A DNA stretch of 64,000 nt, from positions 499,484 through 563,483 of the forward strand of contig NZ_KZ857174.1 in NCBI RefSeq assembly GCF_003350925.1. Reading direction: 5' to 3'. The notes under the pieces are model-generated. The model saw only the letters and a list, made by a program, of their open reading frames with translations. It had not been told where the DNA came from and did no database searches. The position numbers and the translations under genes were made by a program. This document shows, one piece after another, positions 30,881 to 64,000 of the stretch. The stretch comes from Dyella tabacisoli (GTDB taxonomy: Bacteria; Pseudomonadota; Gammaproteobacteria; Xanthomonadales; Rhodanobacteraceae). The number at the start of each line of letters is the position of its first letter. Positions within the stretch are counted from its first letter, which is position 1.

Positions 30881-30950
30881 ATGACGTTAGCTCAGCGGTA
30901 GAGCGGCAATCTTACGGTTGCAGTCGCCGGTTCGACTCCGGTACGTCAAA
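30881..30950 (+). pseudogene. tRNA-like element, Val(UAC)-like but degenerate (6-nt anticodon loop, A·A at 1:72, no CCA)
   Basis: atgacgt ta gctc agcggta gagc g gcaat cttacg gttgc agtc gccgg ttcgact ccggt acgtcaa a. D and T arms are canonical. The anticodon loop is one nt short compared with tRNA-Val(UAC), which has cttacaa. Confidence 0.5.
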
Positions 30951-31023
30951 CATTGGATAGCTCAGTGGGTAGAGCATCGGACTGTTAATCCGACTGTCGC
31001 GGGTTCGACCCCCGCTCCAAACA
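30951..31023 (+). pseudogene. tRNA-Asn(GUU)-like element with a defective acceptor stem (C·C, A·A at 1:72 and 2:71) and no CCA
   Basis: cattgga ta gctc agtgggta gagc a tcgga ctGTTaa tccga ctgtc gcggg ttcgacc cccgc tccaaac. The internal cloverleaf is perfect. The acceptor pairs for only 5 of 7 positions. Confidence 0.5.
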
Positions 31024-46529: not shown

Positions 46530-46611
46530 TTCATCACATTCCTGCGCAAACATACTGCTGACTGGGACTAAAAGCCGGTCATTAGGACTGCGTCGGGGAG
46601 GGCGAGAGATC

Positions 46612-46653
46612 GGCTGAAAGGGAGCCTTCCGCGCAGCGGAACGGGTTTCAGTC
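46612..46653 (+). promoter_or_regulatory. conserved structured 5' leader element (nested hairpin) of receptor 1
   Basis: ggctgaaaggg agccttccgcgcagcggaacgg gtttcagtc. Outer stem ctgaaa/tttcag, inner palindrome ttccgc/gcggaa. A homologous element sits at 50247-50288 with a compensatory C to T (G·U) change. Confidence 0.45.
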
Positions 46654-46744
46654 GATTACTGGCGGATCACCTGGCCAATCGATTCATAAATCGATTGCCT
46701 GGATTATTTTTGCTCATTCATGAGCTGCAATGGGGAGATACATA

Positions 46745-49700
46745 ATGAGTTTTGGTTCGATGAATCGCGGTTATTTGCTGCGACGCTCGGCGTTAGCAGT
46801 AGCCTTGACCATGGGGATGGCGGGCGTAGCGTTTGGCCAGTCCACCACCGGCGGTATTTTCGGCCAGGCCGAAGCCGGCGAGACCGTCAGCGTCAGCAAT
46901 ACCACCGGTTTGACGCGTCAGGTTCAGGTCGACGATAGCGGCCGTTACCGCATCGGCAATCTGCCGTTGGGTACATACACCGTCTCCCTGCAGAAGGGCG
47001 GCACCACGGTCGATACGCGTAAGGACGTGAACCTTACCGTGAACTCGAACACCGAGGTTTCCTTCGCCAGCGCCGCGCATGCAGCGTCGTTGTCGGCCGT
47101 AACGGTCACTGCGAACTCGTTGCCGTCGATCGACGTGAGCGGCGTGGACTCGCGCACCGTCATCACCTCGCAGCAGTTGGCGCGCCTGCCGTTGGCACGC
47201 AGTGCCGAAGCCATCGCCTTGCTCGCACCGGGCGTGGTTGCCGGTAGCGGCCTGTTCAACGGCCTTGGCCCGTCAGGCGGTAACGTCGTTTCGTTCAGCG
47301 GTTCGTCGGTGACCGAGAACGCTTACTACATCAACGGCTTTAACACGACCGATCCGCTCAGCGGCTTCGGCGGCATCACCCTGCCATACGGCGCGATCGA
47401 CCAGCAGGAAATCATCAGCGGCGGCTACGGTGCGGCTTACGGTCGTTCTGACGGCGGCGTGATCAACCAGGTCGGCAAGCGCGGTACCAACGAATGGCAT
47501 TTCGGCGGTCAGGTGCAGTGGACTCCGACCGATCTGAAGAGCGATCCGGTCAACTATTTCTTAGTCAACAAGAAAGACAATTCGCAAGGCAAGATGTACC
47601 GCTACAACAACGACAGCAAGACGTCGACAACGACCTACGACGCCTACGTCGGCGGCCCGTTGATCAAGGACAAGCTGTTCTTCTTCGCCGCGGTGGAAGC
47701 CGAGCGTGTGGCGGGCAAGAGTGTCGGTTCAATCGCCGCACCGCAGGACACCCACACGACGTTCAGCAATCCGAAATGGTACGGCAAGCTGGATTGGAAC
47801 ATCACCGACAGCAATATTTTCGAGCTGACCACGGCCTCCAACAAATCGTCTTATCGCGGCTCGCTGCATAACTTTAGCTACGCCACGAAAACGGATGGCG
47901 CGTTCACAGGCTATGACACGTCGACCAAGACGGGCGCGGATGTCTACTCGGGCAAGTTCACCAGCTACATCACCGATGATCTGACCCTGACGGCCCTGTA
48001 CGGCAAGATGAAGGGTACGTACTACAGCAATACGCCCGGTTTCGATCCGACCTTGATCCATCTGTTCACACCGGATCAGCAGAATCCCGCGCTGAACGGC
48101 GGCAACCCGATCACCAACAGTCAGAACATCTCGACGGTCAACCTGCCGAGCCACAAGTCGACCAACACCAATCTGCGCATCGATCTGAGCTACAAGCTGG
48201 GCAGCCATACGCTCACGGCCGGTCTCGATAACCAGGACGTGAAAAATATCGACGGTGGTACCCAGTTCCCAGCATCCGGTGCGGGCTACGCCTGGGAATA
48301 CACCAATTTCGGCGATCCGAATGGCTATATCGTCGGTGGCCCAGGTACCGCCCCAGGCACTGCCGATTGGCACAATTTCCCGTGGGTCGCCAACACTGGC
48401 GCGACACCGGGCGGTGCGACCGGCTACTACGTCGACAGATACCGTTACCACGACAATGCCTCGGTCCGCGTGGCACAGCGCGCGCAGTACATCCAGGACG
48501 ACTGGCAGATCAACGATCGCTGGTTGGTCAAGCTGGGTCTGCGCAATGACCAGTTCACCAACTACAACGCCGCAGGCCAGCCGTATCTGCGTCTGACCAA
48601 GCCGCAGTGGGCTCCTCGTGTCGGCTTTAGCTGGGACGTGAACGGCGACTCCAGCTTCAAGGTCTACGGCAATGCCGGTCGCTACTACCTCGCCTTGCCG
48701 ACCAGCGTGGCATTGCGTTCCGCCGGTTCGTCGCTGTACACCCGCGAGTACTACACCTATACGGGTATCGATTCGAACGGTGTCCCGACTGGCCTGACTC
48801 CGATCGCAACCAGCCAGGGCTTGGGTGCGCCCTTCTCGGCCAACGGCGAATATGGTCAGCCGCGCGATCCGAAAGTGGGCGCCGCCCAGGGCCTCAAGTC
48901 GGAGTACCAGGATGAGTACATCCTCGGTTTCGACAAGAAGCTGGGTGATTCGTGGGTTTACGGTGCCAAGGCAACCTACCGCAATCTGCGCAATGCGATC
49001 GACGATATTTCGGACGTCAGCTCGATCATCAACAAGATGAACAACATGGGTATTGATCCAAATACCTATGATCCGTCGGCGATTCCGGGCAGCATCCTGA
49101 TAAATCCGGGCAAGAATGCGACCTTCAGCATTGCCAAGCTGGCTGGCGGTTACTACAACGTGCCGATGGATTGGAAGAAGGATTTTGGCTTCGACCAGGG
49201 CCTGAAGCGCAAGTACTACGCCTTGAACCTCTTCCTTGAGCATCCGTTTGATGGCAAGTGGTTCGGCCGGGTCGACTACGTGTGGTCGCGCAGCTACGGC
49301 AACAGCGAAGGTCAGGTCAAGTCCGATATCGGCCAGACCGACGTTTCGGCCACGTCTGACTGGGATTACTCGCAGTTGATGGTCTCGTCCAACGGCCAGC
49401 TCTCCAACGACCGTACGCACCAGATCAAGGCCTACGGTTCGTATCAGGTCGCGCCTGAGTGGATGGTATCCGGCAACCTGGCCATCTTGTCCGGCTCACC
49501 GAAGGAATGCCTGGGTCTGTACGGTCCGCTTGGAACCGACCCGGCGGGCTACGGTACGAACTACCACTTCTGCAACGGTCAGCCGGTCATTCCTGGCTTC
49601 AAGCACAACCCCTGGACATATTTGCTCAGCCTGAGTGCCGAGTACCGTCCAGAATGGGCTGACAAGAAGCTTGGCTTCAACGTGATGGTTTACAACGTGT

Positions 49701-49813
49701 TCAATAAGCAGGCCATCACGCAGACCTATGCTCATTACACCTCCAGCTATCAGCGTCCGTACACCTCACAGACGCCGCGGTATGTGCGTTTCGGTGTCAA
49801 CTACGACTTCTAG
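46745..49813 (+). CDS. TonB-dependent outer-membrane receptor, Oar-like (N-terminal carboxypeptidase-regulatory-like domain)
   Basis: 1022 aa. Signal peptide, TonB-dependent plug/barrel, terminal aromatic residue (…RFGVNYDF). Confidence 0.85.
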   Translation: MSFGSMNRGYLLRRSALAVALTMGMAGVAFGQSTTGGIFGQAEAGETVSVSNTTGLTRQVQVDDSGRYRIGNLPLGTYTVSLQKGGTTVDTRKDVNLTVNSNTEVSFASAAHAASLSAVTVTANSLPSIDVSGVDSRTVITSQQLARLPLARSAEAIALLAPGVVAGSGLFNGLGPSGGNVVSFSGSSVTENAYYINGFNTTDPLSGFGGITLPYGAIDQQEIISGGYGAAYGRSDGGVINQVGKRGTNEWHFGGQVQWTPTDLKSDPVNYFLVNKKDNSQGKMYRYNNDSKTSTTTYDAYVGGPLIKDKLFFFAAVEAERVAGKSVGSIAAPQDTHTTFSNPKWYGKLDWNITDSNIFELTTASNKSSYRGSLHNFSYATKTDGAFTGYDTSTKTGADVYSGKFTSYITDDLTLTALYGKMKGTYYSNTPGFDPTLIHLFTPDQQNPALNGGNPITNSQNISTVNLPSHKSTNTNLRIDLSYKLGSHTLTAGLDNQDVKNIDGGTQFPASGAGYAWEYTNFGDPNGYIVGGPGTAPGTADWHNFPWVANTGATPGGATGYYVDRYRYHDNASVRVAQRAQYIQDDWQINDRWLVKLGLRNDQFTNYNAAGQPYLRLTKPQWAPRVGFSWDVNGDSSFKVYGNAGRYYLALPTSVALRSAGSSLYTREYYTYTGIDSNGVPTGLTPIATSQGLGAPFSANGEYGQPRDPKVGAAQGLKSEYQDEYILGFDKKLGDSWVYGAKATYRNLRNAIDDISDVSSIINKMNNMGIDPNTYDPSAIPGSILINPGKNATFSIAKLAGGYYNVPMDWKKDFGFDQGLKRKYYALNLFLEHPFDGKWFGRVDYVWSRSYGNSEGQVKSDIGQTDVSATSDWDYSQLMVSSNGQLSNDRTHQIKAYGSYQVAPEWMVSGNLAILSGSPKECLGLYGPLGTDPAGYGTNYHFCNGQPVIPGFKHNPWTYLLSLSAEYRPEWADKKLGFNVMVYNVFNKQAITQTYAHYTSSYQRPYTSQTPRYVRFGVNYDF

Positions 49814-49872
49814 TAGTTAGTTGCTGTGATGCCTCATCAACGAAGCTAGTTGTCTTCGTTGATGAAACTCTA

Positions 49873-49904
49873 GCCGCCAGGGATTTCCCTGGCGGCTTTT
49901 TTTG
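49873..49904 (+). terminator. rho-independent terminator after receptor 1
   Basis: gccgccagggatttccctggcggc followed by tttttttg. It is preceded by a second hairpin catcaacgaag…cttcgttgatg. Confidence 0.8.
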
Positions 49905-50147
49905 TGGCCGAGGGATTGGGGCCGGTGAAGTCTCCATCCAGCCCTGACCAGCCTGTGAATAATTACGAGCCGACTGTTCATAGAAGCCAACGTCGTAGGG
50001 ATTTGAGGTTTGTTCATTGGGCAAACTTGAGAATCTGTTCATATTTAAGTTATTGAGTTATAAAAACATATTATTTTTACCAGTCGATTTTCGTAAAATA
50101 TTGCGGCTCAAGTGCACAAAGTAACATTAAAATATTGTTGACTTGCC

Positions 50148-50177: not shown

Positions 50178-50246
50178 CTTGCCCCATGTTCTTGCTGGTT
50201 GGCATTGAGGCTAATCGCTCGACATGTGGCAGGCGGTGCAAGAGAT

Positions 50247-50288
50247 GGATTGAAAGGGAGCCTTCCGCAAGTCGGGATGGGTTTCAGT
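50247..50288 (+). promoter_or_regulatory. conserved structured 5' leader element of receptor 2
   Basis: gattgaaaggg agccttccgcaagtcgggatgg gtttcagtc. Confidence 0.4.
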
Positions 50289-50381
50289 CCGCCTCTTGCA
50301 GGTCATTTTGGTCAGCCGATTCATTGATTGGTTGCCTTGATTACTTTTGCTCAATTTGTGAGCTGCTATGGGGAGATACAC

Positions 50382-53300
50382 ATGAGTTTTAGTTCGATGA
50401 ATCGCAGCTATTTGCTGCGGCGCTCGGCATTGGCGATGGCCTTGACCCTCGGGATGGCGGGCGTGGCTTTCGGCCAGTCCACCACCGGCGGTATTTTTGG
50501 CCAGGCCGAAGCCGGCGAAACCGTCACCATCAGCAATACCACCGGCCTGACGCGTCAGGTCCAGGTCGATAGCAGCGGCCGTTACCGGGTCGCCAATCTG
50601 CCCTTGGGTACGTACACCGTCTCCTTGCAGAAGGGTGGCGCCACGGTCGATACGCGTAAGGAAGTGAACCTTACGGTGAACTCGAACACCGAGGTTTCCT
50701 TTGCCACCGCCGCGAATGCTTCGTCGCTGTCGGCCGTAACGGTCACTGCGAACTCGTTGCCGTCGATCGACGTCAGCGGCGTGGATTCGCGCACCGTCAT
50801 CACCTCGCAGCAGTTGGCGCGTTTGCCGTTGGGCCGCAGTGCCGAAGCGATCGCCTTGCTCGCACCGGGCGTGGTTGAAGGTAGCGGCCTGTTCAGCGGC
50901 CTTGGCCCGACAGGCGGTAACGCGGTTTCGTTCGGCGGTTCGTCGGTAACCGAGAATGCTTACTACATCAACGGTTTCAACACGACCGATCCGCTCAGCG
51001 GCTTTGGTGGTTTGAGCCTGCCGTATGGCGCGATCGACCAGCAGGAAATCATCAGCGGCGGCTACGTTGCGGCTTACGGTCGTTCCGATGGCGGCGTGAT
51101 CAACCAGGTCGGCAAGCGCGGTACCAACGAATGGCATTTCGGCGGTCAGGTGCAGTGGACCCCGAGCGATCTGCAGGGCGACCCGAAGAACTATTTCTAC
51201 GTCAAGAAAGATGGTTCGCAGGGCAAGATGTATCGCTACAAGAATGACAACAAGTCGACGACGTCGACTTATGACGCTTACATCGGCGGTCCGTTGATCA
51301 AGGACAAATTGTTCTTCTTCGCGGCGGTGGAAGCCGAGAAGGTTGGCGGTAAAGGCGACTCTGGTTCCACCAGGGGCGTCGGTCCGGTCAGCGTTCCGCA
51401 GGACACGCATACGTCCTATAGCAATCCGAAGTGGTACGGCAAGCTGGATTGGAACATCACCGACAGCAATATCCTTGAGCTGACCACGGCGTCCAGCAAG
51501 CAGTCCTACCGTGGCACGAACCACTCGTTCAGCTACGCCACGCTCAAAGATGGCCCGTTCACCAGCTACGATCCGTCGACCAAAGACGGTGCCGATCTTT
51601 ATTCGACCAAGTTCACCAGCTATATCACCGATGACCTGACCGTCACGGCGATGTACGGCAAGATGAAGGGTACGTTCTACACCGAAGCGCCTGGTTACGA
51701 CACGAATACCCCTTACATCTTCCAGGCTAACCAGCAGAACCCGGATGTGACCAACGGCAAGGTCGTCACCAATAACCAGCCGATCTCGACACTCGGCCTG
51801 CCGGGGCATAAGTCGACCAATACCAACCTGCGCATCGACGTCAGCTACAAGCTGGGCTCGCATACGCTGACGGCTGGTATCGACAACCAGGACGTGAAGA
51901 ATTCCATGGCCGGCACCAAGTTCCCGGACAATGGTTTGGGTTATGCCTGGGAATACAACGATTTCGTTTCCGCCGGTGGCGACCCTGGCTCGTATATCGT
52001 CGGCGGTCCGGGTTCGGCTCAGCCCGGTGCCGATTGGCACAACTCTCCTTGGGTAGCTAATCCGAACGCTACGCCGGGTGGCGCCACGGGTTTCTACGTC
52101 GATAAGTACCGTTATAACGACAGTGCTTCGGTGCGTGTATCGCAGCGCGCGCAGTACATCCAGGACGACTGGCAGATCAACGATCGTTGGTTGGTCAAGC
52201 TGGGTCTGCGCAACGACCAGTTCACCAACTATGGCTCCTCGGGCGCGGCATTTCTGCGTTTGACCAAGCCGCAGTGGGCGCCGCGCCTCGGCTTTAGCTG
52301 GGACGTGAACGGTGATTCCAGCTTCAAGGTCTACGGTAACGCCGGTCGTTACTACCTCGCGATGCCGACTAGCGTTGCCCTGCGCTCCGCGGGTCAGTCG
52401 ATGTATACCCGCGAGTACTACACCTATACCGGTATCGACTCGAACGGCGTGCCGACTGGCCTGACCCCGATCAATACCAGCCAGGGCTTGGGTGCGCCTT
52501 TCTCGGCCAATGGCGAGTACGGTCAGCCGCGTGATCCGAAGGTCACTTCATCGACCAATCTGAAGTCGGAGTACCAGGATGAGTACATCCTTGGTTTCGA
52601 CAAAAAGCTTGGCGACTCGTGGGTCTATGGTGCCAAGGCGACTTATCGCAATCTGCGTAATGCGATTGACGATATCGCCGACAGCGCCTCGATCATGGCG
52701 AAGATGAGCAAGATGGGCATCGATCCGAACACCTTCGATCCTTCCAAGATTCCGGGTAGCCTGCTGATCAATCCAGGCAATACGTCCAACTTCAATATTC
52801 CGAAGATTGGTGGCGGTTACTACAACGTCACTATGGATTGGACCAAGGACTTTGGCTTCGATCAGGGCATGAAGCGCAAGTACTATGCCTTGAACCTCTT
52901 CCTTGAGCATCCGTTTGATGGCAAGTGGTTCGGCCGGGTCGACTACGTGTGGTCGCGCAGCTACGGCAACAGTGAAGGTCAGGTCAAGTCCGATGTCGGT
53001 CAGACCGACGTTTCGGCTACGTCCGATTGGGACTTCGCCTCGCTCATGGTCAGCTCCAACGGTGTGTTGGCCAATGACCGTCGCCATCAGATCAAGGCCT
53101 ATGGCTCGTATCAGATCGCGCCGGAGTGGATGGTGTCAGGCAACGTGCAGATCATGTCCGGCTCACCCAAGGATTGCATGGGTCTGTACGGTGCCAACCA
53201 GACCGATCCGGCCGGTTACGGTGCCTACTACCACTTCTGCAAAGGCCAGCCGTCACCTCCTGGTTCGGCGCGTAATCCGTGGACCTACTTGCTGAGTCTG

Positions 53301-53480
53301 AGCGCCGAGTACCGCCCGGAGTGGGCTGACAAGAAGCTTGGTTTCAACATGATGGTTTACAACGTGCTCAATAAGCAGGAGACCACCCAGATCTACGCGC
53401 GTTCGAACATCAACTATCTGCGTCCATTCACCTCGCAGACGCCGCGCTACGTTCGTGTGGGCGTTACCTACGACTTCTAA
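50382..53480 (+). CDS. TonB-dependent outer-membrane receptor, Oar-like paralog
   Basis: 1032 aa, collinear with 46745-49813 over the whole length. The ORF is open from 50328. Confidence 0.85.
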   Translation: MSFSSMNRSYLLRRSALAMALTLGMAGVAFGQSTTGGIFGQAEAGETVTISNTTGLTRQVQVDSSGRYRVANLPLGTYTVSLQKGGATVDTRKEVNLTVNSNTEVSFATAANASSLSAVTVTANSLPSIDVSGVDSRTVITSQQLARLPLGRSAEAIALLAPGVVEGSGLFSGLGPTGGNAVSFGGSSVTENAYYINGFNTTDPLSGFGGLSLPYGAIDQQEIISGGYVAAYGRSDGGVINQVGKRGTNEWHFGGQVQWTPSDLQGDPKNYFYVKKDGSQGKMYRYKNDNKSTTSTYDAYIGGPLIKDKLFFFAAVEAEKVGGKGDSGSTRGVGPVSVPQDTHTSYSNPKWYGKLDWNITDSNILELTTASSKQSYRGTNHSFSYATLKDGPFTSYDPSTKDGADLYSTKFTSYITDDLTVTAMYGKMKGTFYTEAPGYDTNTPYIFQANQQNPDVTNGKVVTNNQPISTLGLPGHKSTNTNLRIDVSYKLGSHTLTAGIDNQDVKNSMAGTKFPDNGLGYAWEYNDFVSAGGDPGSYIVGGPGSAQPGADWHNSPWVANPNATPGGATGFYVDKYRYNDSASVRVSQRAQYIQDDWQINDRWLVKLGLRNDQFTNYGSSGAAFLRLTKPQWAPRLGFSWDVNGDSSFKVYGNAGRYYLAMPTSVALRSAGQSMYTREYYTYTGIDSNGVPTGLTPINTSQGLGAPFSANGEYGQPRDPKVTSSTNLKSEYQDEYILGFDKKLGDSWVYGAKATYRNLRNAIDDIADSASIMAKMSKMGIDPNTFDPSKIPGSLLINPGNTSNFNIPKIGGGYYNVTMDWTKDFGFDQGMKRKYYALNLFLEHPFDGKWFGRVDYVWSRSYGNSEGQVKSDVGQTDVSATSDWDFASLMVSSNGVLANDRRHQIKAYGSYQIAPEWMVSGNVQIMSGSPKDCMGLYGANQTDPAGYGAYYHFCKGQPSPPGSARNPWTYLLSLSAEYRPEWADKKLGFNMMVYNVLNKQETTQIYARSNINYLRPFTSQTPRYVRVGVTYDF

Positions 53481-53543
53481 GTAGCTAGCTTTACCGTACT
53501 GCCTCATCGACGAAGCCAAGTCGTCTTCGTCGATGAAACACTA

Positions 53544-53575
53544 GCCGCCGGGGATTTCCCCGGCGGCTTTTTTTA
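53544..53575 (+). terminator. rho-independent terminator after receptor 2
   Basis: gccgccggggatttccccggcggc followed by ttttttta. Confidence 0.8.
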
Positions 53576-53605
53576 TGTCCCCGATAGCGGATCAAAGCCG
53601 GCCCA

Positions 53606-59701: not shown

Positions 59702-62700
59702 ATGCTGAATCGTCTCGTCGAATTCTCATTGCGCTACAAAGTGCTGGTGATCGTCCTATTTGCGGTGATCGCTTTTCTAGGCTGGAAGGCGGTGCGCAAT
59801 GTACCGATCGATGCCTTTCCCGATGTCACTCCGGTACAGGTCAACGTCTATACCGAGTCGGCCGGCCTGGCCGCGGAGGATGTCGAGCAGTTGCTCACTT
59901 TTCCGGTGGAGTCTGCCCTGGCCGGCCTGCCGAAGGTGCAGGAGATTCGCTCGGTCAGTCTGTTTGGCTTGTCCTATGTATCCGTGTATTTCGATGACGA
60001 TATGGACATCTATTTCGCGCGGCAACTGGTCAACGAGCGCCTGCAGCAAGTGGGCGATCGATTGCCGGCGGGCTACGGCAAGCCCGAAATGGGGCCGAAT
60101 GCCTCGGGCCTCGGGCAGGTGTTCTGGTACACCGTGGAACGTGCCGATCGACAATTGAAAGAGGCGGCTGACATCGGTGGAAAAGCCATCGACGATATGG
60201 ATCTGCGCACCCTGCAGGATTGGACCGTGCGGTTGATCTTGCGTACCGCGCCAGGTGTAGACGATGTCACCTCATGGGGCGGTGGCGAGCGGCAGTATCA
60301 AGTACGCATCGATCCGAACAAGCTGATCGCCCAAGGTATCGGTTTTCGCGAGGTGATGGCTGCGCTAGAAGCGAACAACGCACAGGTCGGCGGTAACTAT
60401 GTCGACGTTGGCCGCGAGCAATACCTCGTGCGCGGGCTGGGCTTGCTCAAGGACGCCAAAGACATCGGCAACATTGTGCTCAAGAGCGCCGGTGGTACGC
60501 CGGTCTACGTACGCGATGTGGCCAGCGTGGTCGAGGCGCCGGCACCGCGTTTCGGCGCGGTTACCCGCGATGGCAAAGAAGTGGTGATGGGCCAGGCGCT
60601 CGCACGCATCGGCGAAAACGCCAAGAGCGTGGTCGATGCAGTTAAGGCTCGGCTCGATACCGTGCGCCAGGCGTTACCGGCCGGTGTCGAGGTCAAACCG
60701 GTTTATGACCGCACCGAGTTGGTCAATCAGGCTGTCGGTACGGCGGTGCGTGCCTTGGTCGAAGGCTCGCTGCTGGTTGCCCTGGTGTTGTTTTTGTTTC
60801 TCGGCGAACTACGTTCGGCCCTGGTGGTGATCGTGACTTTGCCATTGGCGATGCTGATGGCTTTTATCGGCATGGGGCAGGCCGGTCTCTCGGCCAACCT
60901 GATGTCGCTGGCTGGCCTGGCGATCGGCATCGGCATGATGGTGGACGGTGCGGTGGTGATGGTGGAGAACGCGTTCCGCATCATGGCCGAACAACATGCT
61001 CACGGCGAAAAAGTCGATCGCACGGCCGCTGTGCTGAAGGCCGCGCGTGAGGTGGCCAATCCGATCGCCTTCGCCATCATCATTATCGTGGTGGTGTTCT
61101 TGCCGTTGTTCAGCCTGCAAGGGCTCGAAGGCAAAATGTTCAAGCCGATGGCCTTCAACATCAGCTTCGCGATGATCGGTTCGCTGCTGTTGTCGCTGAC
61201 CCTGATCCCTGTGCTGGCCGCTTTGTTACTCAAGCCCAAACAAGAGAAAGATACCTGGCTGGTAGCGAAGATCAAACGCGGCTACGCGCCCTTGCTGGCG
61301 TGGGCGTTGCGTCGGCGCCGAACGGTATTGGCGGCGGCATGTCTCGCTTTGATCGGCAGCCTGGCGCTGTTTCCGTTCCTGGGTAAAGAGTTCATGCCCA
61401 ACCTGCGTGAAGGCGCGATCATGTGGCGGGTCACCTCGATTCCATCGGCGTCGCTGGATGAGTCGATCGATATCTCGGCGAAGATCGCTCGCTTGTTCAA
61501 GCAAAAATTTCCAGAAGTGGAAACGACGCTGGCGATGATCGGTCGTGCGGAAAAAGGCGAGACCGCCGACGTGAACTACATGGAGATCTACACGCCGCTC
61601 AAGCCCAAACAAACCTGGCGTAAAGGCGTCAGCCTGGAAAGCCTGGAAAGCGAGATGCAGGAGGCCTTGGAAAAAGAACTGCCGACATCGGTGGTCGGCT
61701 TCACTCAGCCGATTCAGATGCGGGTGGAGGAGTTGATCTCCGGCGTGCGGGCGACCCTGGCGCTGAAAATCTACGGCCCCGATCTGGGCCAGCTCGATCG
61801 CCTGAGTGCGCAGTTGAAAAATGCACTGTCCGGCGTGCCCGGCGTGGCGGATCTCGCCTTGGAAGCAAACCTCGGCAAGCCACAGATCCGCGTGCAGGTA
61901 GATCGCGAAGCGCTGGCCCGCTATGGGCTCAATGCCGACGATGTGTTGACCGTAGTAAAAAACGGTATCGGCGGCGAGGCGGTCACCAGTTTGCTAGATG
62001 GGGTGCGGCGCTTCGATATCACGGCGCGGCTGGATGAAGATTCAAAACGCTCGATAGCGGCGATACGCACGATCCCATTGCGTGCGGCGAATGGCAGCAT
62101 GGTGCCATTGGACAAGGTCGCCGAAGTAACCACTGCCGAAGGCTATTCCTTCGTACGGCGTGAGCAACTGCAACGCTATGCGGTGATCCAGATGGACGTG
62201 CGCGGTCGTGATATCGACAGCTTCGTCAAAGATGCCAACGCCGCGATCGCACGGGAGCTGAAGCTGCCGGCAGGCTATTGGACCGAGTGGGGTGGAGCTT
62301 TCGAAAATCAGCAGCGTGCGCTCGGCCGCCTGGCCTTGATCGTGCCGGCGACGATCTTCTTTATCTTCATGCTGTTGTATACCGCATTCAATTCGGTCAA
62401 ATACGCCGCGCTGATTCTCGCCAACGTACCGTTTGCGACGATTGGTGGTCTGGTGGCCTTGGCGATCACCGGCCAATACCTATCGGTGCCTTCGGCTATC
62501 GGTTTTATTGCAGTGTTTGGCGTGGCCATGCTCAACGGCATCGTGCTGGTGAGTTTCCTCAATGAGCGGCGCGAGCAAGGCAGTAGCGTGCGTGATGCCG
62601 TAGTGCAGGGTACGGCGTTGCGTTTGCGGCCAGTGTTGATGACTGCCAGCGTGGCGATCCTCGGTCTTGTGCCCATGTTGTTATCGAGTGGTGTGGGTGC

Positions 62701-62833
62701 CGAGACGCAACGGCCTTTGGCGACGGTGGTGGTGGGCGGCTTGATAACCTCCACCTTGCTCACCTTGGTGCTGTTGCCGGTGTTGTATGACTGGATTGAG
62801 GGGCGAAAGGCCGGCAAGGCCGCGACGCTATAA
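59702..62833 (+). CDS. heavy-metal efflux RND transporter (CusA/CzcA family)
   Basis: 1043 aa, 12 TM helices and two large periplasmic loops. Methionine-rich HME-RND features. Confidence 0.9.
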   Translation: MLNRLVEFSLRYKVLVIVLFAVIAFLGWKAVRNVPIDAFPDVTPVQVNVYTESAGLAAEDVEQLLTFPVESALAGLPKVQEIRSVSLFGLSYVSVYFDDDMDIYFARQLVNERLQQVGDRLPAGYGKPEMGPNASGLGQVFWYTVERADRQLKEAADIGGKAIDDMDLRTLQDWTVRLILRTAPGVDDVTSWGGGERQYQVRIDPNKLIAQGIGFREVMAALEANNAQVGGNYVDVGREQYLVRGLGLLKDAKDIGNIVLKSAGGTPVYVRDVASVVEAPAPRFGAVTRDGKEVVMGQALARIGENAKSVVDAVKARLDTVRQALPAGVEVKPVYDRTELVNQAVGTAVRALVEGSLLVALVLFLFLGELRSALVVIVTLPLAMLMAFIGMGQAGLSANLMSLAGLAIGIGMMVDGAVVMVENAFRIMAEQHAHGEKVDRTAAVLKAAREVANPIAFAIIIIVVVFLPLFSLQGLEGKMFKPMAFNISFAMIGSLLLSLTLIPVLAALLLKPKQEKDTWLVAKIKRGYAPLLAWALRRRRTVLAAACLALIGSLALFPFLGKEFMPNLREGAIMWRVTSIPSASLDESIDISAKIARLFKQKFPEVETTLAMIGRAEKGETADVNYMEIYTPLKPKQTWRKGVSLESLESEMQEALEKELPTSVVGFTQPIQMRVEELISGVRATLALKIYGPDLGQLDRLSAQLKNALSGVPGVADLALEANLGKPQIRVQVDREALARYGLNADDVLTVVKNGIGGEAVTSLLDGVRRFDITARLDEDSKRSIAAIRTIPLRAANGSMVPLDKVAEVTTAEGYSFVRREQLQRYAVIQMDVRGRDIDSFVKDANAAIARELKLPAGYWTEWGGAFENQQRALGRLALIVPATIFFIFMLLYTAFNSVKYAALILANVPFATIGGLVALAITGQYLSVPSAIGFIAVFGVAMLNGIVLVSFLNERREQGSSVRDAVVQGTALRLRPVLMTASVAILGLVPMLLSSGVGAETQRPLATVVVGGLITSTLLTLVLLPVLYDWIEGRKAGKAATL

Positions 62834-62848
62834 CGTCCATAACGCACG

Positions 62849-62877
62849 GCCCCCTCCCTACATGTAGGGGAGGGGGC
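62849..62877. terminator. near-perfect GC palindrome immediately after the cusA-like stop
   Basis: cccctcccta catg taggggaggggg. Confidence 0.45.
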
Positions 62878-63430
62878 GTAGGTTGGGCTGAACGAAGTGA
62901 TGCCAGCATGGCGAACCGTTGGGGTTCGCTTGCGCTCACCACCAACCTACACAAGCACGAATCCAGGCGAACAGGCTCTCAGGTCACGCCGAGCATCTGC
63001 TGCGCCAAAGCTTCGGCCACCTTGATGCCATCCATCCCGGCCGAAAGAATGCCGCCCGCATAACTCGCGCCGGCGACGAGGTACGTGTTGTAGGTTGGGC
63101 TGAACGAAGTGATGCCCAACATGGCGGATCGTTGGGGTTCGCTTGCGCTCACCACCAACCTACGCAAGCACGAATCCAGGCGAACAGGCTCTCAGGTCAC
63201 GCCGAGCATCTGCTGCGCCAAAGCCTCGGCCACCTTGATGCCATCCACCCCTGCCGAAAGGATGCCGCCCGCATAACCCGCGCCGGCGACGAGGTACGTG
63301 TTGTAGGTTGGGCTGAACGAAGTGATGCCCAACATGGCGGACCGTTGGGGTTCGCTTGCGCTCACCACCAACCTACGGAAGCACGAATCCAGGCGAACAG
63401 GCTCTCAGGTCACGCCGAGCATCTGCTGCG
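62878..63430. repeat. 3-copy tandem repeat (unit about 206-217 bp); each unit is a 73-bp inverted-repeat-bounded element plus a copy of the last roughly 130 nt of the downstream minus-strand gene
   Basis: Units start at 62878, 63084 and 63301. The element has 9-bp terminal inverted repeats (gtaggttgg / ccaacctac) and an internal palindrome cccaac…gttggg. The B segments re-encode …GAGYAGGILSAG(M/V)DGIKVAEALAQQMLGVT*. Confidence 0.85.
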
Positions 63431-64000
63431 CTAGAGCCTCGGCCACCTTGATGCCATCCACCCCTGCCGAAAGGATGCCGCCCGCATAACCCGCGCCTTC
63501 GCCCGCCGGGTAGAGACCGCGCACGTTCAAGCTTTGGCAGTCGTTGCCACGTGTAATACGCAGCGGCGACGAGGTACGTGTTTCCACGCCTGTCAGCACG
63601 GCATCGTGCATGGCGAAGCCTTTGATCTGTTTATCGAAGGCCGGTAGCGCTTCGCGTATGGCGGCGATGGCGTAGTCGGGCAGGCTGGGGGAGAGATCGC
63701 CCAGCTTCACGCCCGGTTTGTAAGACGGCTCCACTGAGCCGAGTTGAGTCGAGGGTTTGCCGGCGATGAAATCGCCCACCAATTGGGCCGGGGCCTCGTA
63801 ATTGCCGCCGCCCAGCTCGAATGCCTTCGATTCCAGCGCGCGTTGAAAGGCGATGCCGGCCAAGGCGCCGCCGGGATAATCAGCCGGCGTAATGCCGACG
63901 ACAATACCGGCGTTGGCATTGCGCTCGTTGCGCGAGTACTGGCTCATGCCATTGGTGACCACGCGGTTTTCTTCCGATGTTGCCGCAACCACCGTGCCGC
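63405..64000 (-). CDS. FAD-dependent dehydrogenase (COG2509-like), C-terminal part; 5' end outside window
   Basis: C-terminus …GLYPAGEGAGYAGGILSAGVDGIKVAEALAQQMLGVT, typical of the FAD-dependent protein C-terminal domain. Stop at 63405-63407. Confidence 0.65.
   Translation of the reverse strand, partial: GTVVAATSEENRVVTNGMSQYSRNERNANAGIVVGITPADYPGGALAGIAFQRALESKAFELGGGNYEAPAQLVGDFIAGKPSTQLGSVEPSYKPGVKLGDLSPSLPDYAIAAIREALPAFDKQIKGFAMHDAVLTGVETRTSSPLRITRGNDCQSLNVRGLYPAGEGAGYAGGILSAGVDGIKVAEALAQQMLGVT

Follow-up and report, generated by a model that had tools for sequence, protein, structure and literature searches.

A tandem REPIN array that includes copies of the 3' end of a neighbouring dehydrogenase gene

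Near the right end of the window (the whole 64-kb stretch of DNA that was analysed), two convergent genes are separated by a gap of 571 bp (62834-63404). The left border of this intergenic region is a cusA-like gene coding for an RND efflux transporter, whose upstream partners matched the Pfam families HlyD_D23 (the barrel-sandwich domain of CusB or HlyD membrane-fusion proteins) and OEP. On the right, a gene coding for a FAD-dependent dehydrogenase is read from the opposite strand, with its stop codon placed by translation at 63405-63407. All copies of a small hairpin element are contained in this gap. Tandem Repeats Finder delimited a tandem array at 62878-63497, with a period of 213, 2.9 copies, 96% matches, 0% indels and a score of 1149. 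Three 213-nt copies at 213-bp spacing were returned by a repeat search, and a three-way alignment placed the units in register without breaks. The three tandem units of about 210 bp reported in a preliminary description of this DNA were therefore recovered, within limits that differ from the 62849-63430 given there. The features of the region are collected in Table 1.

Table 1. Features of the array and of its two flanking genes, with the evidence for each.
Feature	Position in the window	Strand	Evidence and remarks
RND efflux transporter gene (cusA-like)	59702-62833	+	ORF; Pfam ACR_tran PF00873, E = 1.6e-289
G+C-rich palindrome CCCCCTCCCTACATGTAGGGGAGGGGG, adjoining REPIN copy 1, outside the repeat unit	62849-62876		Inverted repeat; DNA fold
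REPIN copy 1 (73 nt), the most decayed	62878-62950		Alignment; model 18.7 bits (left half) and 32.3 bits (right half)
Spacer copy 1 (28 bp), between stop codon and REPIN	62951-62978		Alignment
Pseudo-3' end 1 (111 nt: stop and 30 codons, then 18-nt piece)	62979-63089	-	Translation; G to S, V to M
REPIN copy 2 (74 nt)	63090-63163		Model 42.5 and 33 bits; long hairpin fold like copy 3
Spacer copy 2	63164-63191		Alignment
Pseudo-3' end 2 (111 nt)	63192-63302	-	Peptide identical to the real tail over 30 shared codons; 4 differences between units 2 and 3
REPIN copy 3 (74 nt), directly downstream of the real gene	63303-63376		DNA hairpin fold; model 42.5 and 32.3 bits
True spacer (28 nt), dehydrogenase stop codon to REPIN	63377-63404		Sequence; alignment
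Real dehydrogenase 3' end (stop and 30 codons), the part copied into the units	63405-63497	-	Translation; right limit of the array 63497 (Tandem Repeats Finder)
67 nt of the real gene absent from both pseudo-tails	63498-63564	-	Alignment
18 nt GGCGACGAGGTACGTGTT, marking the gene-side breakpoint of the proposed original duplication of ~280 bp	63565-63582	-	Direct-repeat family
FAD-dependent dehydrogenase gene, running past the window end, intact through its stop	63405-64000	-	Pfam FAD-depend_C PF21688, E = 1.9e-51

Three parts make up each unit of the array: a hairpin element of 73/74 bp, a spacer of 28 bp and 111 bp of the 3' end of the minus-strand dehydrogenase gene. In all three copies the element has ends GTAGGTTGG…CCAACCTAC and an internal CCCAAC…GTTGGG. 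These terminal inverted repeats and the internal palindrome had been correctly described; the length of 73 nt assigned to the element applies to copy 1 only, copies 2 and 3 having 74 nt, and the rest of the unit measures 139 bp (28-bp spacer and 111-bp tail) instead of the 133 bp first counted. A pseudo-tail consists of 93 bp that run unbroken from the stop and of 18 bp (GGCGACGAGGTACGTGTT) which, in the real gene, are found 67 bp further in. Both pseudo-tails thus have in common an internal, frame-shifting deletion of 67 bp. They translate as NTYLVAGA(G/S)YAGGILSAG(V/M)DGIKVAEALAQQMLGVT followed by the stop, in agreement with the G/S and V/M variation read earlier. Alignment and translations also bear out the initial view that, past the one real gene end, the locus contains two decaying pseudo-3' ends, both accompanied by a palindromic element of their own.

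A plus-strand ORF of 171 aa spans all units as an internal repeat; it stays open through the array because 213 = 3 x 71. Neither this ORF nor the short minus-strand ORFs of the array reached a Pfam cut-off, and their first interpretation as repeat artefacts was upheld, the 171-aa ORF being a read-through of the repeat. None of these ORFs and neither of the two pseudo-tails should be annotated as a gene; the dehydrogenase gene itself is intact. The near-perfect palindrome noted before the array was also found at its place, where it folds with -13.3 kcal/mol (z = -4.0). Its two GTAG-headed arms stand face to face (CCCCCTCCCTAC AT GTAGGGGAGGGGG), which is the reverse of REPIN polarity. No exact second copy of it was present in the window, where one arm had five matches with 2 mismatches.

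Other repeated segments were observed in the window. A tandem pair of paralogous segments of ~3.65 kb (46589-49909 and 50225-53580; 74-88% DNA identity) contains, in each segment, an ORF of ~1030-1050 aa with weak TonB-dependent-receptor-like matches, together with a conserved upstream leader (46589-46653 and 50225-50289) and a conserved terminator made of a hairpin and a T-run (49848-49909 and 53519-53580). Stretches 35862-36331 and 38305-38783 show 72-75% DNA identity and lie inside the adjacent long ORFs 35151-37166 and 37177-39702, which suggests that these ORFs are tandem paralogues. Finally, a tRNA-like sequence with an abnormal anticodon loop (30881-30951; ARAGORN 'tRNA-???', Rfam tRNA 48 bits) adjoins tRNA-Asn (30951-31023) and may be a degenerate tandem tRNA copy.

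According to the published definition, a REP is a palindrome of 20-50 nt preceded by GTAG, and BIMEs often occur as consecutive tandem copies (PMC8266576). By this definition the 73/74-bp element is a REP doublet (REPIN/BIME). It is made of two inverted REP halves, each consisting of GTAG and a GTTGGGnn…nnCCCAAC stem-loop, and the extragenic location of its copies also matches the definition. The halves measure 32-35 nt and all six in the array start with GTAGG. As single-stranded DNA, the 74-nt element folded into one end-to-end imperfect hairpin of -17 to -18 kcal/mol (z = -3.0 and -4.4). A covariance model (8-bp stem, GTTGGGnn/nnCCCAAC) was built solely from REP halves of other genomes and then applied to the window. 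The six halves were recovered with scores from 42.5 down to 18.7 bits (Table 1) and E from 0.013 down to 2.6e-08. The lowest score belongs to the left half of copy 1, which has lost one base and carries CCAGC in place of CCCAAC. With filters off, the search of the whole 64-kb window gave no further copy, and nothing outside the six halves exceeded 10.5 bits. The half-element consensus derived from the foreign doublets is GTAGGTTGGGTTGAGCnnAGCGAAACCCAACAn.

The distribution of the element outside the window was studied with an element-derived pattern, scanned against one genome per bacterial species. At least 120 genome loci matched, as compared to ~14 expected by chance (an estimate from the specified bases and the gap lengths). 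Among the matches listed were Cyanobacteria, alpha-, beta- and gamma-Proteobacteria, Desulfobacterota, Chloroflexi and Poribacteria. From the genome loci listed, 80 full doublets of 68-96 nt were extracted, which have in common the far CCAACCTAC end and a loop consensus, neither of them demanded by the pattern. In addition, the exact left half, with two positions freed, was found in at least 120 metagenome contigs at many unrelated loci. A subtype among these contigs has the mixed halves of the window, GTGATGCCCAAC on the left and GTTGGGGTTC… on the right, and one contig (L227) carries a right half nearly identical to that of the window. The family is dispersed in public genomes and metagenomes; the 64-kb window contains no copy outside the array.

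A link with genes for REP-associated tyrosine transposases (RAYTs) was visible in three loci, where the element directly abuts a RAYT ORF. In a Nostoc MAG (L081), the ORF scored 209 bits with NCBIfam NF047646 (cut-off 80) and passed Pfam Y1_Tnp. In Methyloglobulus (L019), it scored 168 bits with NF047646 (cut-off 80), and in Crenothrix (L061) it was identified by BLASTP similarity only. No RAYT was found in the 64-kb window, the best tblastn match being unconvincing (E = 0.002, 22% identity). Of the initial label 'REP/MITE-like', the REP part is thus supported by the GTAG-headed hairpin halves, the covariance model and the RAYT neighbours elsewhere; the MITE part was abandoned, since no target-site duplication is present and the associated enzyme class is the Y1/HUH transposase.

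Among the matches listed, the GTAGGTTGGG…CCCAAC type of REP keeps nearly the same core across several bacterial phyla, with covarying stems. This breadth is notable, since REPIN-RAYT systems are generally regarded as specific to a lineage and passed on vertically. A literature search with the motif strings returned primers only. Two further arrangements were seen among the retrieved loci. Six contigs (L133, L156, L218, L219, L224, L231) contain a single REP half followed by the same sequence (AAATTTCTTTGGCCCAGCTGCTGG…), at a spacing of ~0.8-1.7 kb within contigs. This sequence was considered, in L133, L219 and related contigs, as a possible REP-targeting insertion sequence, which the ORF list of L219 does not favour: its ORFs are short (100-340 aa) and none is transposase-sized. 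Pure head-to-tail doublet arrays with no flank between them, of 74-bp and 41-bp periods, were observed in a Microcoleus MAG (L039, 7700-7925; L113, 2153-2354).

When 240 retrieved loci were compared with themselves, further tandem arrays that combine this REP family with a flank came to light, and the upstream genes were identified by Pfam. The architecture of the dehydrogenase array recurs at other genes. Downstream of hrpA, a tail of 114 nt, a 29-nt spacer and a 78-nt REPIN form two units of period 227 with 93% identity (L204); the same two-unit array is present in L146, which is 99.94% identical to L204 over 3.3 kb and comes from an independent metagenome assembly. At a carbon-nitrogen (CN) hydrolase gene (L212), a tail of ~52 nt is repeated with a 15-nt spacer and a 76-nt REPIN at a period of 153, and a third, decayed tail is also present. 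At glnE (L220), a tail of at least 35 nt is repeated three times in a composite REP array. At nadC (L194; period 165), the stop codon is the only part of the gene that is included. An array of Vulcaniibacterium thermophilum (L072, 2431-3107; period 207) is purely intergenic and contains no gene tail. It lies between convergent genes, response-regulator and DnaJ-like, and interleaves the GTAGGTTGGG-type REP with a second REP family (GTAGGGCGGG…). Tail lengths in such arrays range from 4 to 114 nt, as expected if duplications of ~150-300 bp arise around REPINs near stop codons and those that spare the gene survive. Overall, the arrays of the window, hrpA, the CN-hydrolase gene, glnE and nadC indicate that REPIN clusters often include the end of the upstream gene.

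The three units of the window were then compared with one another. Over about 195-213 positions, units 2 and 3 differ at 4 positions, units 1 and 2 at 10, and units 1 and 3 at 12, that is by 2-6%. Changes specific to one unit number 9 in unit 1, 1 in unit 2 and 3 in unit 3. Unit 1 is the most degenerate, with its broken left REP half and its G to S and V to M replacements. The sole private coding differences of the real tail are two bases of a synonymous TTG to CTA change (Leu). Because units 1 and 2 have the 67-bp deletion in common, they are sisters, and a 9:1 split of changes between sister units has a two-sided binomial p of ~0.02. The skewed 9:1:3 split suggests that unit 2 was later overwritten through gene conversion from the neighbouring real copy, in a tract that ends at the indel. 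Recombination among the units, raised as a possibility in the preliminary description, thus gains some support from the distribution of the changes. A single unequal crossover was also considered as the origin of unit 2; the exchange would have to be confined to a 6-nt interval (from column 189 to the deletion), and gene conversion was preferred.

The same comparison bears on the reliability of the assembly. Short-read assemblers can mis-count short tandem repeats, and the array might be a repeat that was mis-assembled, expanded or collapsed. Given a divergence of 2-6% between units (4-12 positions, an indel among them) and a pattern of decay, the array is not an assembly artefact in our view, and the concern voiced at the outset over a collapsed or expanded repeat is largely removed. 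The hrpA array, of the same architecture, was moreover assembled identically in two independent metagenomes. An artefact is accordingly very improbable, and the divergence of the units argues that the array is genuine and fairly old.

The junctions between units were examined at the nucleotide level (a slash marks the joint). The unit junction reads …GGTACGTGTT/GTAGGTTGGG, or CCTAC/AACACG in the sense of the gene, and the ancestral flanks read …GGGGGC/GTAGG on the left and …GTGTT/TCCACG on the right. Of the two breakpoints, one coincides with the outermost base of the REPIN hairpin and the other falls within the gene. No microhomology was found at either breakpoint of the window, and the CT dinucleotide, which is the reported cleavage dinucleotide of TnpAREP, 5' or 3' of REPs (PMC8266576), was absent as well. 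As a consequence, neither slippage nor RAYT cleavage is positively supported at this junction. The far breakpoints of other arrays lie 3-10 nt past the REP foot and beside CT: …CCTACGCG/CT in L204, …CCCTACGAGCT/CTG in L194 and …GTGCT/ in L212. In L204 and L194, this CT is equally a microhomology of 2-3 nt. A breakpoint signature (CT or microhomology) common to all arrays was looked for; it is present in L204, L194 and partly L212 but absent in the window. Together, these arrays provide a small set of junctions that can be used to test how clusters are formed. The sequence of the window junction suggests that the first event was illegitimate and involved the foot of the hairpin; fork stalling or an enzyme could be the cause.

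Related loci were also sought, and no close relative of the locus turned up for comparison. An exact 36-mer made of spacer and stop had 0 matches in metagenomes. Protein identity to the nearest homologues of the dehydrogenase was 84-90%. On the contigs of three of these homologues the DNA downstream of the gene is unrelated, and the one contig that was read closely showed no copy of the element.

The reading that we favour, with a probability of about 0.78, is that tandem duplication, in a stepwise history, affected a REPIN located downstream of the dehydrogenase gene and took along the gene's last ~30 codons, and that the pseudo-tails are non-coding debris. At the start, the gap between the convergent genes would have contained a REPIN, 28 nt past the stop codon of the FAD-dependent dehydrogenase, a housekeeping gene. 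A homology-independent tandem duplication would then have copied ~280 bp, from precisely the outermost base of the REPIN hairpin to a breakpoint within the gene at 63582/63583; besides the REPIN and the spacer, this stretch would include the gene's final 178 nt with the stop codon. The size of ~280 bp follows from the 67 bp that are missing from both pseudo-tails and present in the real gene. With the gene intact, the extra tail would have been neutral, and the spare tail would have lost its 67 bp. The shortened unit of 213 bp would have been duplicated again by unequal homologous recombination, and gene conversion may finally have brought the middle unit into line with the real gene end, as far as the barrier formed by the 67-bp indel. 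As the gene would never have been interrupted, each step could be neutral; neutrality is assumed here, the order of events is inferred from three copies only, and the hairpin or a RAYT might have had a part in the first break. The three REPIN hairpins and the neighbouring palindrome would probably act only as 3' structures between convergent transcripts.

Two alternatives attribute the array to an enzyme or to a mobile element. A RAYT (Y1/HUH) could have made it by cutting at the REPIN end and at a second site in the gene, strand transfer joining the two, so that the REPIN was copied with its upstream flank (flank transduction). Arrays of REPIN and flank would then be made directly by RAYT activity, and not by faults in replication or recombination. 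The window breakpoint flush with the outer nucleotide of the REPIN and a joint without homology are what phosphotyrosine strand transfer would give, and the far breakpoints of L204, L194 and L212 lie near the REP foot, next to the CT cleavage dinucleotide of TnpAREP (PMC8266576). Yet the window has no CT at either breakpoint and no RAYT in its 64 kb, the CT of L204 and L194 also fits slippage as microhomology, the sample amounts to only four to five junctions, and the passage from two to three units requires no enzyme. We therefore regard this origin as possible but doubtful. If it were true, RAYT strand transfer would be the long-sought 'second mechanism' of REPIN cluster formation and would give REPINs a route to repeatedly duplicate the 3' ends of housekeeping genes (dehydrogenase, hrpA, glnE, CN-hydrolase), and new C-termini could evolve from the spare tails. 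Integration hot-spots at the ends of genes typically show series of decaying gene 3' ends. The series observed here could accordingly be read as the footprints of integrative elements that target the gene 3' end, bring a replacement tail and leave att-type duplications. However, the 28-bp spacer and the REPIN recur behind every tail, showing that whole units were copied head to tail. There is no DNA between the repeats that could be the remnant of an island, no other tail copy in the window, and no integrase among the left neighbours checked (the RND efflux operon, murU, amgK, a lipid-hydroxylase-like gene and the two receptor-like paralogues). An integrative origin is hence hardly credible.

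It may also be asked whether the array has a function, with tails serving as C-terminus cassettes or with hairpins selected as a multi-hairpin terminator or insulator. In favour of a function, the real tail and unit 2 may have exchanged sequence by gene conversion, and the RNA of the gap folds strongly on either strand (z = -4.3 and -4.5), with discrete hairpins at the REPINs and the palindrome. The gap has no canonical terminator: a scan of 62834-63404 for intrinsic terminators, palindrome and REPINs included, gave no site with a hairpin and a T-run. The absence of a canonical terminator speaks for a function of the hairpins, and their lack of T-runs speaks against it. With only 0-2 residues separating them from the real tail, the copies would have no diversity to donate. 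Rfam gave no match in 62-64 kb, and tRNAs only in the whole window; neither a reverse transcriptase nor an invertase was present among the neighbours examined. Similar arrays take arbitrary tail lengths, as expected for accidents. A diversity-generating retroelement was considered in this context and rejected, as the differences are of mixed types (C/T, A/G, G/T, indel) and not confined to adenines, and the region has no Rfam match. Overall, the hairpins could plausibly act as 3' structures between convergent transcripts, a cassette role of the pseudo-tails appears unlikely from their sequences, and a selected function of the array is improbable. As part of the duplication history that we favour, the array would probably be a neutral, non-functional by-product.

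The array can be set against several known systems. Tandem REPIN clusters "including the flanking sequences" were described by Bertels & Rainey 2011 (PMC3116915), who inferred an unknown second mechanism of formation. The array of the window is a further example of such a cluster, with the modest twist that its flank is coding and gave rise to dead gene tails. Like the ordered REPIN clusters of Pseudomonas fluorescens SBW25, it has near-identical REP doublets and flank in tandem (here with a period of 213 and 96% matches), in units of a few hundred bp, present in two to four copies between genes. In contrast with SBW25, the flank here includes 93+18 nt of a protein-coding 3' end, the units abut without an unrepeated linker, the REP family is different (GTAGGTTGGG…CCCAAC), and no RAYT or other REPIN lies within the 64 kb of the window. 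The BIMEs of Escherichia coli and other REP/iREP tandem arrays (PMC8266576) resemble it in having a GTAG-headed palindrome and an inverted copy over a short linker, in consecutive tandem copies that are intergenic and commonly at gene 3' ends; BIMEs consist of REPs and short linkers only, whereas 139 of the 213 bp of each unit here are non-REP and include coding sequence. As in RAYT/TnpAREP REPtrons, the same element family flanks RAYT genes in the Nostoc MAG, Methyloglobulus and Crenothrix, but the window is without RAYT. Finally, att duplications also present a real gene end followed by non-functional copies of the same end; here, however, there is no island, no integrase among the neighbours scanned and no unique DNA between the copies, and the spacer and REPIN are repeated too. 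Current understanding is left unchanged by the array. For REPIN biology, it offers one clean, fairly old REPIN cluster with a coding flank, a breakpoint at the hairpin foot and signs of gene conversion.
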